From contig CAVOFT010000001.1 of the NCBI GenBank assembly GCA_963695095.1, forward strand, positions 608,001-672,000: DNA of 64,000 bases. Reading direction: 5' to 3'. Source of the DNA: an uncultured bacterium (lineage in GTDB: Bacteria > Krumholzibacteriota > Krumholzibacteriia > JACNKJ01). Made by a program: the position numbers. Shown here piece by piece: positions 18,001 through 24,000 of the stretch. Position 1 is the first letter of the stretch. Every line of letters begins with the position of its first letter.

Positions 18001-21000
18001 GCCGCGCGCTGCCCATCCTGCTCGCCGCCCTGCTGATGGCGGCGGCCCTGCCGATCCGCGCCGCCGTGGACCTGCCCTATCTCACGGGCCGCCTCGTCGA
18101 CACGGCGGAGATCCTGAGCCCCGGCGCGCACGAGCAGATCACCGCGCTGCTCAGGACGCACGAAGAGCAGAGCAGCGACCAGATCGCCGTGCTCACCCTG
18201 CCCACCCTCGAGGACGAGAGCATCGAGGACTTCGCCGAGCGCGTCTTCGCGGCCTGGCGGCTGGGCCAGACGGGCCGGGACAACGGCGTGCTCCTCGTCA
18301 TCGCCGCCGAGGACCGGCGAATGCGCATCGAGGTGGGCTACGGGCTGGAAGAGCAGCTCACCGACCTCGCCGCCGGCCGCATCATCCGCAACGTGATGAC
18401 GCCGCGCTTCCGCGAGGCGGACTACGACGGCGGCGTCGAGGCCGGCGTCAGCGCCATCATCGCGGTGCTGGCGGGGGAAGGCGAGCCGCCCGGCGACGGC
18501 GCGGCGGAGAGCCGGCCCTCGGGCTTCAACCTGGAGGGCCCGGACATGTCGATCATGGAGCGCGTGCTCATCGGCGCCTTCATCTTCGGCATCATCGGCC
18601 TCTTCACCGTGCTCGGCGTGCTGACGCCCAGCGGCGGCTGGTTCCTCTACCCCTTCCTGATCCCCTTCTGGGCCACCTTCCCGATCGCCGTGGTCGGCGT
18701 GAAGGGCGCCTTCGTCCTCTTCATCGCCTACCTGGTGGGCTTCCCGATCGCCAAGGTCCTGGTCTCGCGCTCGGCCTGGTACGGCAAGGCGGGCCGCGAT
18801 CTCAAGACCAAGGGCAAGGCGCGCATCGGCGGCTTCACCTTCGGCGGCAGCAGCTCGGGCGGCAGCTCGCGGAGTTCCTGGAGCTCGGGCAGCAGCAGCT
18901 TCTCGGGCGGCGGCGGCAGCTCCGGGGGCGGCGGGGCTTCCGGGAGCTGGTAAGGGCTGGCGCCAAGGGCCGCGCCCATCGCCGACAAGTTAAAAATAGT
19001 GCAAGCCCTGGACTTGTTGACAGGCGCTACGCTTCGAAACATAATGAATGGGCTCAGGGTTTCGCGAGTCGAAGGCGAGCGCTGCCGCGGCCGTCTTCAA
19101 ATCACCCCATCAACAACCCGAGGTGTAGGAAGTGAGCGTTGGCAAGGCGTTGCTCGTGGCCGCACTCCTGGTGCTGGCCGCGGCCTCCGGTTGCGGAGAC
19201 GGCTCGGATCCTAGTTCTCCATCCGACAGCCAGAATGTGGCTACCGAACCGGGCCAGGCCGAGACCGCAACCATCGGTTCGGATGGGGGGACGCTGAGCG
19301 CCACCTCCAGCGCCGGGATCGTCTACACGCTGACGGTGCCCCCCGACGGCCTCGCTGTGCCGCAGACGATCACCCTCACCCCCGTGACGGCAATCGCCAA
19401 CCTGACCCTCGCCGGCGGCCTGGTGGGAGGCGTGGACCTTGAGCCGAGCGGCCTGGTGCTCGATGCCCCGGCAACCCTGACGATCTCCGCCAACACGGTT
19501 CCGCCCGCGGGGCAGCTGGCGATCGCCATCGGCTACGCAGGCGATGCCGCCGCGATCATGCCAGCGTTCCACCGCCACGAGGCGGGAGTCTGGACGCTCC
19601 CCATCTCGCACTTCAGCGGCGCCGCCATGGGCTTCGGAACCACCCAGGATCTGGCCACGCTGGTCGGTGTCGTCGCACAGGGCGGCTCGGCGACCTTCAT
19701 CGCGCAGCTCGTGGCCGCGCTCAGCCTGACGCCTCGCGACGGGCGCACCGAACTCGATCTCTTCGTGAGCTGGTTCCAGACCGTCCTGCTCCCGCAGATC
19801 GAGCAGGCAAGCAATGATCAGGAGCTGCACCTGGCCATCAGCCAGCTGCAGCACTGGGCCGAGTGCATTCCCCTTGCCGAGACCTGCACGATCCTCACGG
19901 GCTCGCCGAGCTGCGCCGAAGCGCTGGACCCGCTGCATGCGGCCGCGCGCGACGCCCTCGCGCCCCAGATTCGAACTGCGATCTTTGGTAACAACGAGGT
20001 GTGCGCCGGTCAGGAGAGTCTGGCAGCGCTGCTGAACGTCCTGTTCTGGCAGCGCCAGGCCGAGCACTTCGGCATCGCCACGGCTGAAAATCAGCTCGAC
20101 CTGGATTCAATCCTGGCGGGGATCTGCGCAAAGCCGGTGCTGGAGTCCTTCGTCCTCGCCGATCCGCTCAGCGCGGGCTTCCCATACTCTCTCGATCTGA
20201 ATCTGGCGCTGCGCTTCGGTGAGCATGCCGAGGCCCAGGCCATGCCGTTCGCGGTCGACCTCTCGGCCATGAATGCCACCTTGCAGCACCCGACCGGCTT
20301 CACGAACGCGCAGGGATTCTACACCACGGTCATCACCGCCGACGGAAACGGCCCGATCACGGTCACCGGTCAGGCTTGCCTGGTCCTGCCGGGATTGACG
20401 CAGCCGTCGCCGATCTGCGGAAACATCGCGATCGAAGGCCGCGCACTCGACTTGACGGGCACGTGGGAGGGGACCCTCTTCGACACGCGTACCAGCCCCC
20501 AGGGGGAGGTCGAGCACTTCGTCGTGCCGGTGATCGTGACGCTGGCGCAGAATCAGAACGCGATCTCGGGAAGCTACGCAGCCCAGGGCGGCGGGGCCGG
20601 AGGCGTCTCGGCGACCCTCAGCGGCGGGGAGCTCCTCAACTACACGCTCTCGCAGACCGCCCCTTGCGCAGGCAGCTTCGTCGGCCAGGCCACGGTTTCA
20701 TTCGACGGCAACACCATCGAGGCCGGCTTCAACGGGTCGAGCTGCATGGGAACGCACGTGGGGACGTCCACTGTGACGCGGAGCTCCCCCTAGGCAGTTT
20801 CGCTGAGGGCGCAGGAGTGGCAGCCGAAGCCCGGGCGGCCAGTTAGCGCCTCCGGGCGCTCTATGTCCCCCCGACCGCGAAGATTCAGGACGGGGGTTGG
20901 CTGTTTCGGCTTGCATTGTAAGTAACTGGTTACTTACAATGCTGCCATGTCCTCAGTCCCCAGAAAGCCGACCGCCGACCGCCGCCGCGAAATCGTGGCC

Positions 21001-24000
21001 GCCGTGCTGCACATCCTCGGCGAGCGCGGGCTCACGGCGCTGTCAACGACGGCTCTCGCCAAGGAAATCGGCTTGAGCACGGGCGCGCTCTTCCGGCATT
21101 TCGACTCCCGGGAGGCGATCCTCCGCGAGACGGTCCGCCACGCGGAGGCCGAGATCGAGGCGACCTATCCCGACTCAAGCCTGGCTCCCCGCGCCCGCCT
21201 GGCGGCCTTCGCCGCTGCCCGCGTGAAGCTGCTGCGCGCGAATCCCGGCCTGTCCTGGCTCCTGCGCACCGATCAGGCCCACCTGGCGCTGCCCGGGGAC
21301 GCGGCCGCGTCGCTGCAGGCCTTCGTCCAGCGTTCCCGCGCCTACCTGCTCGATCTGCTGGAGGCGGGCCGGGCCGCGGGAGATTTCCGCGACGACCTGC
21401 CGGCGAAGACCTTGCTCGTCCCGGTGCTCGGCACCATCCACGCGCTCTGCAATCCCCGGCTGGGCCTCGGCCCCGGGGCCGAGGATGGCCCCGATCGGGT
21501 CATTGCCGCCCTCGTCTCGCTGCTCGCCCCGACCGGGGAAGGCAGAGTCTCTATGCTTGACGAGCCCATCGAACCGACATCAACCTACCGGAGAGAAGGA
21601 ATGATCACCGACATCAACAGCGATCTCAGCGTTGGCCGCATCGCCACCGAGCATCCCCTCGCGACGCGCGTCTTCGCGCGCCACGACATCGACTTCTGCT
21701 GCGGAGGCGGCGCCTCCCTGCAGGAGGCCTGCGCCAAGCGCGGCCTCGAAGCCGACGCGGTGCTCGCGGAGATCGAGAAGGAACTCGCCGCGACGGAGAC
21801 ATCGGCGCGCCGCTGGGACGATGCGCCCCTCGACGCGCTCATCGACCACATCCTGGCGACCTATCACGCGTCGCTCCGCGAGGAGATGCCCCGCCTCGAC
21901 GGCATGGCCCGCAAGGTACTGGAAGTCCATGGCGAGAAAATGCCCGCGAAGTTGAGCGAACTGGCGGCGGTGTTCGCCGGCCTGAAGCAGGAGCTGGAGA
22001 TGCACATGCTCAAGGAGGAGCAGATCCTCTTCCCGGCCATCAAGCAGGGCCATGGCGCCGCGGTCGGCGGCCCGATTGCCGTGATGGAGGCGGAGCACGA
22101 GAGTGCGGGGGCGGCGCTGCGCCGGCTGCGCGAGCTCACGGACGGCTACCAGGTGCCGGCGGAGGCCTGCAACACCTGGACCGCACTCTGGCACGGCCTT
22201 GCCGCCTTCGAGCGGGACCTGCACGAGCACATCCACCTCGAGAACAACATCCTGTTTCCCCGGGCGCTGGCCGGCTAGCGCCCGACGGCGAGGGGCGGGC
22301 GCTGCCGCGCCCGCCATCGAAAGGAGATGGCCTCGATGACTGCACCGAACGCCAGAAACCTGAAGGTTCGCGCCGTGCGGATCTGCTCTCCTCGCCGATC
22401 CCCCCGCGGCCCGGCGCTCGCTCTCGCCTGTGCCCTCGCACTGCTTGCCGGGCAGGCCATGGCCCAGGTCTCCGACCGGGACTACTTCCGCACCAACTGC
22501 GCCGTCTGCCACACCATCGGCGGCGGCCGGCTGATCGGTCCGGACCTGGCCGGCGTCGAGACGCGACAGGAGCGCGCGTGGCTGGTCGAGTTCATCGTCG
22601 ACCCGCAGTCGAAGCTCGGCACCGGCGACCCCTATGCCCTCAAGCTGCTCGCGGAGGCGAACAACGTGCCCATGGTGGCGGCGCCCGGCATCACCGCCGA
22701 GCGGGCTCGCGCGTTGCTGGATCTCGTCGCCCTCGAGGTCAGCTCCGGCGGCACGGACTTCGCCGGTCCCAAGCAGCTCCGCGAGGCGACCGCGGCCGAC
22801 CTCGCCCTCGGCGAGCAGCTCTTCAGCGGCCGGAGCCGGCTCGCCGCCGGCGGGCCGGCCTGCATTGGCTGCCACACGGTCACCGGCCTCGGCGGCTTGG
22901 GCGGGGGCCGGCTGGGACCGGATCTCACCCAGGTGAACGATCGCCTGGGCGGCGCTGCGGGTCTGACGGCCTGGCTGCAGGCCCCGCCGACGGCCCAGAT
23001 GCAGGCGACCTTCGGCAATCGCCCCTTCAGCGAGGACGAGGTGATCGCGCTCGCCGCCTACCTCACGGGCGTTGCGGGGCGCCCCGAGAGCTCGATCCTG
23101 GCGGGGATGAACGCCAGCGCTTTCCTCTTCATGGGCGCCCTGGGGGCGTTGGCAATCCTGGTCATCTTTGGTGGAGCCTGGTCCGGGCGCCTGCGCGGCG
23201 TCAGGCACGGGCTGGTGCGGCGGGCGCGCAAGAACCCAAAGCGAGTCGGACTGAACGCTGGAGGGCAGCATGGCTAGCGGCGACGGACGCATTCCCTGGA
23301 TCAAGGACAAGGTTTCGCCGGAATCCCGCGGCTGGGAGGAGTTCTACCGGAACCGCTGGCAGCACGACAAGGTCGTGCGCAGCACCCACGGCGTGAACTG
23401 CACGGGCAGCTGCACCTGGAACATCCACGTCAAGGACGGGATCGTCACCTGGGAGATGCAGGGTCTGGACTACCCCCTGCTCGAGAAGAGCCTGCCGCCC
23501 TACGAGCCGCGCGGCTGCCAGCGCGGCATCTCCTACTCCTGGTACCTCTACAGCCCGCTGCGCGTGAAGTACCCCTACATCCGCGGCGCCCTGCTCGACC
23601 GGTGGAAGATCGCGCGCATGACGCACGCCGATCCGGTGGCGGCCTGGGCCTCGCTCGTCGAGGACGACGTCGCCCGCCAGGCCTGGCAGCGCGCGCGAGG
23701 CAAGGGGGGACTGCGGCGCACGGACTGGGATACGGTCCTGGACATCATGGCCGCGGCGAACCTCTACACCGCCAAGAAGCACGGCCCGGATCGCATCACC
23801 GGCTTCTCGCCGATTCCAGCCATGTCGATGATCAGCTACGCGGCGGGAGCGCGGATGCTGCAGCTGATGGGCGGCGTGGCCCTTTCCTTCTACGACTGGT
23901 ACTGCGACCTGCCCAACGCCTCGCCGGAGGCCTGGGGCGAGCAGACCGACGTGCAGGAGTCCGCCGACTGGTACAACGCGAAGCTGCTGGCGGTCATGGG

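Follow-up and report, generated by a model that had tools for sequence, protein, structure and literature searches.

A TetR-RIC open reading frame in an uncultured Krumholzibacteriota bacterium is probably a joined copy of a widespread tetR-ric operon

The function of RIC/YtfE proteins is debated between the repair of iron centers and the NO-forming reduction of nitrite, and the control of their synthesis is debated likewise. In Escherichia coli, YtfE is under repression by NsrR and acts during nitrate respiration by reducing nitrite to NO (PMC9052748). A 2022 review of RIC proteins lists NsrR, FNR/Fur, DnrD, NorR, and SrrAB as regulators of ric, and the regulators known so far (NsrR, NorR, DnrD, and SrrAB) are global. 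Another point of comparison is the class of autoregulated TetR/QacR-type repressors, in which an N-terminal helix-turn-helix (HTH) is followed by an all-helical ligand domain, and a palindromic operator overlaps the promoter of the repressor's own transcription unit. A protein or peptide can also serve as the signal for a TetR fold, as FtsZ does for SlmA, and AmtR with GlnK and DhaS with DhaQ are further TetR-fold proteins under the control of a protein partner. Finally, hemerythrin domains fused to chemotaxis or diguanylate cyclase modules are signaling proteins, and in these the fusion is a conserved architecture.

Composition of the open reading frame

Our analysis concerns a window of 64,000 nt, the whole stretch of DNA that was analyzed, from a genome that is assembled into two contigs totaling 3.64 Mb and is 93.5% complete. 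The earlier note had described a TetR repressor and a complete RIC di-iron protein within one open reading frame (ORF) of this window. That description holds, as a single uninterrupted ORF at 20947-22278 on the + strand encodes 443 amino acids. The ORF has three parts, as follows.

20947..21534, + strand: TetR-family repressor part, residues 1-196, with the HTH at 16-61 (Pfam, alignments A3/A6, AF2, and TetR-fold matches)
21535..21600, + strand: linker, residues 197-218, equivalent to the variable TetR tail of split relatives (three-frame translation)
21601..22278, + strand: RIC/YtfE-type di-iron protein part, with ScdA_N at about 21628-21780 and a hemerythrin-like domain at about 21841-22266 (Pfam, TIGR03652, and 5FNN)

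Both halves are intact members of their respective families. Pfam places TetR_N (PF00440) at residues 16-61 (2.5e-10; 40.4 bits against a cutoff of 24), ScdA_N (PF04405) at residues 228-278 (3.4e-20), and Hemerythrin at residues 299-440 (6.6e-26), along with a sub-threshold match to TetR_C_24 at residues 80-166. The NCBIfam model for RIC, TIGR03652, scores 258.2 bits against a curated cutoff of 204.7, and the narrower YtfE model NF008221 scores 235.5 bits, under its cutoff of 254. When modeled with AF2, the TetR part takes up a two-domain, all-helical fold of 10 helices (pLDDT 93.1, pTM 0.87). Foldseek returned 487 PDB matches for it at E<=0.001, all TetR-fold regulators among the matches listed; its structural neighbors include KstR2 (4w97, the nearest, with a TM of 0.77), SlmA, DarR, and HapR. 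The family shows no invariant Cys and no recognizable cofactor motif in TetR. The RIC part matches E. coli YtfE over its full length (5FNN, E 8.8e-52) and keeps the positions of the six ligands named in PMC9052748 (four His and two bridging Glu; His84, His129, His160, His204, Glu133, and Glu208) and the Cys-Cys pair, whose role is described in the same paper. Mapped by hand through the 5FNN alignment, these ligands correspond to the invariant columns H89, H135, H166, H210, E139, and E214, and all 13 of the 13 paired RICs share the DFCCGGG motif that holds the Cys-Cys pair of ScdA_N. As in the hemerythrin signaling proteins, a di-iron four-helix bundle is joined to a signaling output domain; unlike in those proteins, the fused state is a rare exception, and the di-iron part comprises an entire RIC, ScdA_N included.

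The tetR-ric unit and its operator

In relatives, the two halves are encoded side by side. In all 85 informative loci (84 split loci and the window), ric lies immediately downstream of this TetR, and in 84 of them tetR and ric are separate genes. This count leaves aside one locus (L084) with a minus-strand match in the stored locus and nine more in which the contig runs out <=90 nt past tetR. In 20 of the 84 split loci, the stop codon of tetR and the start codon of ric share an ATGA, with ric preceded by a GGAG-type Shine-Dalgarno sequence. The pattern points to a two-gene tetR-ric operon, and not a fusion, as the conserved unit, and it supports a functional link between the TetR and RIC parts. 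Loci bearing the unit are labeled Planctomycetota, Acidobacteriota, and Krumholzibacteria in their records, and 365 protein clusters are of the stand-alone kind. The unit is apparently both widespread and undescribed; full-text searches of papers outside subscription turned up no account of TetR and RIC as a pair or a fusion, and a term search of the full 2022 review returned neither "TetR" nor "fused" nor "fusion."

We therefore favor, at a probability of roughly 0.7, a reading in which the ORF is one copy of this unit whose two genes have become joined in frame, the unit is a self-repressed leaderless operon, and the join is young. Its regulatory side would be carried by four elements upstream of and at the start of tetR.

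20911..20916, + strand: -35-like hexamer TTGCAT (sequence read; TTGACA or CTTGAC at this place in most related loci)
20913..20942, no strand assigned: operator, a perfect inverted repeat of 14+14 nt with a 2-nt spacer (arms 100% complementary)
20935..20940, + strand: -10 hexamer TACAAT, 18 nt past the -35 hexamer and overlapping the right operator arm
20947..20949, + strand: ATG start, 6 nt past the -10 hexamer, with no Shine-Dalgarno sequence

The core of the operator, GTAAGTAA-N4-TTACTTAC, spans 20918-20937 as an 8-4-8 palindrome. It recurs with at least 13 of 16 bases matching in 89 of the 91 related loci that include upstream sequence, where it sits between the -35 and -10 boxes; the operator was absent from the two exceptions, L145 and L181. 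Across the phyla named above the operator is almost invariant. The promoter of the window is inferred from these 89 loci, since a consensus promoter scanner made no call at 20911-20940, where the -35 box matches at only three of six bases. In 69 of the 89, the hexamer at the -10 position is TACAAT, TACTAT, or TACATT. The operator ends 9 nt before the start codon in 45 of the 89 loci and 8-12 nt before it in 69, and the TetR N termini of relatives align at residue 1. A start some 9 nt after the operator would imply that the tetR mRNA is leaderless. The earlier note had offered a regulatory role for the TetR half as a guess from domain content and neighborhood; with a palindromic operator placed inside the promoter of nearly every related locus, that role now appears well founded.

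The reach of the repressor seems narrow. The operator matches once in the window (0.00 expected) and nowhere else in the 3.64-Mb genome at up to three mismatches, so that control by the repressor is most likely confined to its own operon. In four of five other genomes with the unit, the operator is likewise present once, which argues against a wider regulon of the hmp/hcp type. These features set the locus apart from the E. coli system. In both, ric is under a dedicated repressor, here also beside nitrate respiration genes; here, however, the repressor is a TetR-family protein and not an Rrf2/[4Fe-4S] one, and its gene directly precedes ric within one operon. The HTH, the all-helical second domain, and the putative operator overlapping its own promoter are those of TetR/QacR-type repressors, but tetR is co-transcribed with its target instead of divergent from it, the promoter would be leaderless, and in about 1 to 2% of cases the repressor is fused to the product of its target.

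Taken together, these elements suggest how the unit may work. The palindrome occupies the spacer and -10 box of a sigma-70-type promoter, with tetR starting where transcription should begin. A TetR dimer bound there would repress its own leaderless transcript and thereby set the level of RIC, a signal linked to nitrite, NO, or Fe-S damage may release it, and RIC would be translated from its own Shine-Dalgarno sequence and ATG. As a portable operon of RIC with its own TetR and an almost invariant operator, found in >365 protein clusters, the unit offers a clean system in which to look for the signal that makes RIC necessary.

The junction and the fused relatives

The window retains the translation signals of a separate ric gene.

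21590..21604, + strand: Shine-Dalgarno sequence GGAGAGAAGGA, followed by the ATG at 21601-21603 (M219) within an ATGA motif (sequence read)

This is the same junction as the ATGA overlap of the split loci, from which the window is one base of reading frame apart, with the internal ribosome-binding site and ATG kept. Three-frame translation shows no stop in the alternative frame, which lies one base to the right, between the TetR core and a TGA at 21602-21604, the linker included. Short runs lie near the linker, namely CCCC at 21527 and GGGG at 21535. On the joined-copy reading, a one-base frame change in the nonconserved TetR tail, just before the ancestral ATGA, would have removed the tetR stop. 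TetR, a floppy linker of about 22 residues, and RIC would then be read as one protein, while free RIC could still arise from the internal start. The young join would be a real insertion or, with lower probability, an error of an error-prone assembly.

The database bears on both the age and the reality of such joins. Among the best 120 database matches, five proteins of 429-445 amino acids contain all three families (49-57% identity, 98-100% coverage), as the earlier note had said, but its classification of the rest as RIC only does not hold for all of them, since P0007 (357 amino acids) is an N-truncated fused form. Fused forms account for 1 of the 85 informative DNA loci and, among about 371 protein clusters, for no more than about 6 (at most about 1.6%). 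On a quick tree with SH-aLRT support, the fused rows are scattered, requiring six changes for seven rows, and each sits at a tip beside a split relative. The fused architecture is thus not the conserved state of the family, as it would be in a one-component transducer, and on the joined-copy reading the join is not an ancient, selected sensor architecture. Genuine fused lineages nevertheless exist elsewhere, at least two of them, and they are rare, recent, and of several origins. In one pair, P0005 and P0007, the proteins are 82% identical and the linker is gap free, and the P0002 cluster contains four fused sequences that are 96-100% identical. Since the fused frame has been kept through this divergence, it is possible that tethering gives a functional advantage, and the rare natural fusions provide a test of direct talk between repressor and enzyme.

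Whether the join in the window is itself real is less certain. The earlier note had held that it was not an assembly artefact, because the fused architecture is found elsewhere, which stands; the assembly, however, carries about 100 one-base frameshifts of the matching sign. The strongest alternative is accordingly that tetR (about 222 amino acids, ending at the TGA of ATGA) and ric are separate genes into which the assembly has inserted a spurious base at about 21528-21600. We consider this a serious but minority possibility. A genome-wide scan returned 109 frame-switch candidates, 101 of them with the sign of a one-base insertion, which is the sign needed for this fusion. The scan is an in-house heuristic; when 14 of the 109, randomly sampled, were checked, 5 were single Pfam domains split across two frames, 5 were consistent with a break, 4 were uninformative, and none was contradicted. 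Housekeeping genes are among those broken, including an IscS-like aminotransferase, urocanase, COX2, and a gene within the window itself.

23270..26975, + strand: narG, whose reading frame in this assembly is broken by a one-base shift at about 25082-25085

In narG, TIGR01580 positions 24-623 are in one frame and positions 639-1233 in the next, and the junction was read. The readable frame-switch junctions look like single-base duplications, and the short distance in frame from the split arrangement, together with an alternative frame open to the TGA, is what a spurious base would produce. The recovery of 3.64 Mb in two contigs points the same way. Further N-truncated Pfam matches are also present in the window. 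Set against this, the target is only about 70 nt; with errors detected once per about 36 kb, and a true frequency that may be a few-fold higher, a hit there has a prior chance well below 1%. Natural fusions are real in at least two lineages, albeit in so few clusters, and a search for k-mers enriched around frameshift candidates, as an error-prone context, gave nothing convincing (best z of about 3.8), so that no such context singles out this stretch. For annotation, the case is a warning that "rare fusions" in metagenome genomes with long contigs need an indel check.

Possible sensing by the RIC part, and the nar neighborhood

If the di-iron or Cys-Cys center of RIC reacted with NO, nitrite, or redox changes and passed this on to the TetR DNA-binding domain of the same chain, the ORF would encode a one-component sensor. 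These same two partners became fused on at least four to six occasions, and one lineage has kept the fusion through 18% divergence. The di-iron ligands and Cys pair are all intact, and PMC9052748 describes E. coli YtfE and its repressor NsrR as jointly monitoring cytosolic nitrite. We nonetheless judge this reading improbable. The earlier note's treatment of the fusion as a meaningful unit finds little in its favor, given that all informative loci but one are split and that the fused forms are scattered over the tips of the tree. A recent accident would be expected to leave the internal Shine-Dalgarno sequence and ATG in place, and both are still there. Furthermore, the full-length model, built from a 6-sequence alignment, has a pLDDT of <50 at residues 198-220 and a pTM of 0.49, and predicts a disordered linker with no fixed domain arrangement and no confident packing.

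A related possibility, to which we give similarly little weight, is that RIC itself is the ligand, so that TetR, split or fused, would be controlled by contact with RIC in, for example, its nitrosylated, oxidized, or apo form. The strict co-occurrence of the two and their recurrent fusion favor this, as proteins that fuse tend to interact, and SlmA, a TetR-fold protein that binds an FtsZ peptide, is among the structural neighbors. Operon membership already explains the co-occurrence, however, and no conserved surface was identified. In its fullest form, which strikes us as a long shot, TetR and RIC would be a self-contained nitrite/NO-sensing pair in which RIC makes NO, or is nitrosylated or oxidized, and contact frees TetR from the operator. 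Such a pair would be a TetR-based counterpart of YtfE-NsrR, with natural fusions, including that of the window if real, as its single-chain versions.

Returning to the joined copy of a self-repressed operon, its surroundings are those that had drawn attention to the ORF. The cytochrome c and nar genes reported downstream of it are indeed present in the window.

22327..23277, + strand: c-type cytochrome gene, 48 nt downstream of ric and overlapping the narG start by 8 nt

The order downstream is the c-type cytochrome gene, narG, narH, a narJ-narI ORF, and two MFS transporter genes. The cytochrome c gene is part of the neighborhood and lies outside the conserved tetR-ric unit, and the nar adjacency is particular to this genome. 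Conserved linkage to nar was ruled out, as none of 74 neighboring ORFs at 12 related genome loci belonged to a nitrate reductase or Cytochrom_C family. Regulation of nar by TetR through its operator was likewise ruled out, the sole operator copy being at tetR's own promoter and none standing before the cytochrome c or nar genes. A search of the 93.5%-complete genome did not find hcp, nirK, or nirS, and an Rfam scan of 20000-23500 returned nothing at E<=0.1. Between ric and the cytochrome c gene no terminator was called on the + strand, and a hairpin after the ric stop is not significant against shuffled sequences (z of -1.85), so that it speaks clearly neither for a terminator nor against one. 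Transcription may read through from ric into the cytochrome c and nar genes. The position beside nar fits the reported role of YtfE in the handling of nitrite during nitrate respiration.

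The fused reading frame and the conserved gene pair

The window carries a TetR-type regulator joined in one frame to a complete RIC (YtfE/ScdA-type di-iron) protein. The earlier note had described the ORF in these terms, and the open frame, domain matches, YtfE alignment and predicted TetR fold bear it out.

20947-22278, + strand: TetR-RIC ORF, 443 aa, a single open frame from ATG (20947) to TAG (22278)
Residues 16-61 of the ORF: TetR_N (Pfam)
Residues 80-166: TetR_C_24 (Pfam; weak, under the cut-off)
Residues 228-278: ScdA_N (Pfam)
Residues 299-440: Hemerythrin (Pfam)

Both halves are ordinary members of their families. 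TIGR03652, the NCBIfam model of the RIC di-iron protein family, covers residues 229-440 and exceeds its cut-off, and Escherichia coli YtfE (5FNN) aligns end to end with the C-terminal 225 residues (E 8.8e-52). One study lists the di-iron ligands of YtfE as His84, His129, His160, His204, Glu133 and Glu208 (PMC9052748). When mapped by hand through the 5FNN alignment, these four His and two Glu positions are invariant columns in 13 of 13 related RICs, as is a Cys-Cys pair. With the RIC query used, no second RIC was found in this genome (G000, 93.5% complete). The N-terminal 200 residues are confidently predicted to adopt a TetR fold (pLDDT 93, pTM 0.87), and the closest solved structures to this model are KstR2, SlmA, DarR and HapR/SmcR. 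In the ligand domain of this TetR family, R92, G101, R148 and D150 are invariant and W104, S108, T163 and H165 nearly so; there is no Cys among the family-invariant residues of that domain.

Among related loci, the two genes are usually separate. Scanning species-representative genomes with the fused alignment yielded 12 loci matching both halves, and a stop codon separates the halves in all 12 (same frame in 5, other frame in 7). Metagenome contigs were scanned with a TetR-only alignment, from which the best 80 of 228 relatives were kept. The resulting set comprised 95 loci (the window, 14 genome loci and the 80 metagenome loci); nine ending less than 90 nt past tetR and one with a minus-strand match were left outside the informative count. 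In all 85 informative loci ric directly follows tetR, a strict linkage; 84 are split pairs, and the window is the sole fused locus (1/85). When the protein database was searched with a profile, 365 clusters matched at E<=1e-40, the best 120 of which are all 200-247 aa and are stand-alone TetRs, and 26 of 26 matches among 50%-identity representatives (E<=1e-30) were 154-218 aa. Fused forms amounted to the five clusters that the earlier note had correctly reported plus an N-truncated one (P0007), and thus to at most about 1.6% of clusters. As judged from these sequence comparisons, the conserved unit is the tetR-ric gene pair, not the fusion. Both proteins are intact, and ric has its own Shine-Dalgarno sequence and ATG. 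The loci with this operon are labelled with several phyla.

A predicted operator within the tetR promoter

20913-20942: perfect inverted repeat, 14-nt arms and 2-nt spacer, directly upstream of the tetR ATG

The palindrome has the core GTAAGTAA-N4-TTACTTAC. Of the 91 related loci with 45 nt or more of upstream sequence, 89 carry this core, matching it at 13 or more of its 16 positions (mostly 16/16). Its position is constant and conserved inside the promoter: it lies immediately past a TTGACA-like -35 box, and its final three bases are the start of the -10 box (TACAAT, TACTAT or TACATT). Of the 89 loci, 45 have the start codon 9 nt past the operator and 69 have it at 8-12 nt, which places the start codon 6-7 nt past the -10 box. 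Transcription usually starts about 6-7 nt past the -10. Since the start codon thus lies where transcription normally begins, and there is no Shine-Dalgarno sequence before it, the tetR-ric transcript would start leaderless.

The window contains a single copy of the operator core (0.00 expected), and with up to 3 mismatches allowed the whole 3.64-Mb genome contains just one. Of five other unit-carrying genomes, four have one copy and the fifth has two (up to 2 mismatches). The simplest reading is that the predicted repressor acts on its own operon only, as a dimer in autorepression, and thereby sets the level of RIC.

Three sites resemble the operator or depart from its usual arrangement. The extra copy in the two-copy genome, which is an Acidobacteriota genome (L202, G043 contig 727), is an operator-like site at 291-310 with 2 mismatches; some 70 nt further on begins a radical-SAM/SPASM ORF (384-1541), which may be an additional regulon member there. 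At another locus (L180, ~1455-1520), the operator is 94 nt ahead of the TetR start and is followed by a second, similar half-palindrome, possibly a tandem-operator variant. Finally, G000 encodes a 198-aa TetR paralogue (L196; contig 2, 4567-5166, - strand) that shares 35% identity with the TetR half and comes with a 14-bp palindrome of its own, AGCAAGTACTTGCT. The half-site of this palindrome is similar to that of the operator, there is no spacer, and it follows a TATTAT box upstream of MacAB/TolC-like efflux genes.

Origin and reality of the fusion

The stop codon of tetR and the start codon of ric share an ATGA in 20 of the 84 split loci, and split loci have a GGAG-type Shine-Dalgarno sequence within the final tetR codons. 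The window junction has the same arrangement, GGAGAGAAGGA followed by ATGA. TetR conservation extends to LLAP (~21530), beyond which the neighbouring frame is open as far as the TGA of ATGA, and removing one base anywhere within ~70 nt would yield a TetR of ~222 aa with the standard overlap. The fused state therefore differs from the common split state by a single base of frame and retains the translation signals of ric, which points to a young event.

Such a one-base difference could also be an error, and the earlier note had dismissed an assembly artefact. We consider an artefact rather unlikely, yet the fusion is the least secure part of the whole finding. The assembly is poor in respect of single-base frame errors, with a rate of at least 1 per ~36 kb and probably several-fold higher. 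On contig 1, 783 same-strand frame changes were screened by GC3, which left 109 frame-switch candidates without a nearby stop codon, 101 of which have the one-base-insertion sign that would be needed to create the window fusion. When 14 of the 109, randomly chosen, were checked with Pfam, a single domain was split over both frames in 5 (Aminotran_5 twice, SBP_bac_1, urocanase and rhomboid), in 5 more either a domain was N-truncated or a multidomain protein was split, the remaining 4 were uninformative, and none was contradicted. Readable junctions resemble single-base duplications. Furthermore, the exact one-base/ATGA signature would be expected in only some natural fusions. Against an artefact, the target is small (~70 nt) and only about one locus in four shows the ATGA arrangement; combined with the error rate, these figures give an expected artefactual fusion in ~0.1-0.2% of such loci, to be set beside the ceiling of ~1.6% for natural ones.

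Natural TetR-RIC fusions are real but rare, recurrent and recent. One cluster (P0002) contains four distinct 429-aa fused sequences, 96-100% identical and on separate contigs, and its RIC-only members (93-94% identical) begin at the same Met. Two other fused forms, P0005 and P0007, share 82% identity over 340 residues with no gap in the linker. A quick tree was built from 92 TetR parts. It takes 6 changes to explain its 7 fused rows, well-supported branches force at least 4 of these changes, and the nearest neighbour of every fused row is split. The Met at the RIC start is kept in 4 of 5 full-length fused relatives and in the truncated P0007. This recurrence indicates that tethering is tolerated and arises repeatedly. 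The earlier note had suggested a sensor, and our sequence, tree and structure-model comparisons gave no sign that tethering makes a new sensing mechanism. In the full-length model both halves are well folded; a pTM of 0.49 and pLDDT below 50 across linker residues 198-220 suggest no preferred packing of the two domains. A genuine join would be expected to yield both the fusion protein and free RIC. Four of the seven fused rows have long end branches (P0003 1.17, P0006 0.99, the window 0.86, P0005 0.56; median 0.15), for which sparse sampling, a relaxation of constraint once the genes were fused, or errors in the sequences are possible reasons.

Genes broken in contig 1 include those for an IscS-like aminotransferase, urocanase, COX2, CheB, a rhomboid protease and a solute-binding protein. 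In the window, narG (23270-26975) is read in two frames, covering profile positions 24-623 and then 639-1233; the change, at ~25082-25085, resembles one extra base in ACGCGCGT, and either the break is an error of the assembly or the gene is a pseudogene. ORFs at 35712-37424, 38894-39841, 54008-55096 and 60360-61559 match only the C- or N-terminal part of Pfam families (ABC-3 125-256 and 179-257 of 258; ZnuA 121-263; PAD_porph 160-302 of 321; GGDEF 5-106 of 161) and are probably further frameshift breaks. The same caution is needed for other reported fusions and pseudogenes of this genome.

Nitrate respiration and the predicted control of ric

48 nt past the window ORF: c-type cytochrome gene, overlapping narG
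After narG: narH, a narJ-narI ORF and two MFS transporter genes

The earlier note had placed the fusion just upstream of cytochrome c and nar genes. This holds in the window and did not extend elsewhere: none of 74 neighbouring ORFs at 12 genome loci belonged to a nitrate-reductase family or to Cytochrom_C, and the genes around tetR-ric vary between loci. The adjacency is a feature of G000 only. The unit is absent from both same-genus genomes searched and present, split, in two same-class genomes. In the stretch from ric to the cytochrome gene, no terminator was called on the + strand, and a hairpin there was no better than those of shuffled sequences; in this genome, transcription may read through into the cytochrome c and nar genes. 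G000 has Nar, and nirK, cytochrome cd1 nitrite reductase and hcp (hybrid cluster protein) were not found in it (93.5% complete). YtfE has been proposed to clear cytoplasmic nitrite in nitrate respiration (PMC9052748), a role with which the position of ric beside nar fits. The inducing signal may be related to nitrite, NO or Fe-S damage.

A 2022 RIC review gives NsrR, FNR/Fur, DnrD, NorR and SrrAB as ric regulators, and a term search of it returned no 'TetR', 'fused' or 'fusion' (PMC9268430). Unlike NsrR, the TetR considered here is encoded in ric's own operon. Our search, which covered the open full-text literature, found no description of a ric-dedicated TetR or a TetR-RIC fusion. What appears to be new is a self-contained, predicted TetR-controlled ric operon with occasional single-chain versions, and this operon is a useful handle on RIC regulation.

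Two further ORFs of the nar region combine domains. The narJ-narI ORF (28477-29820, 447 aa) matches NarJ (delta) at residues 43-147 and NarI (gamma) at 223-437; given the indel errors of the assembly, an artefact may lie behind this neighbouring fusion too. At 31492-33276, a 594-aa ORF in a NarK-like position joins an MFS transporter to a C-terminal DoxX domain.
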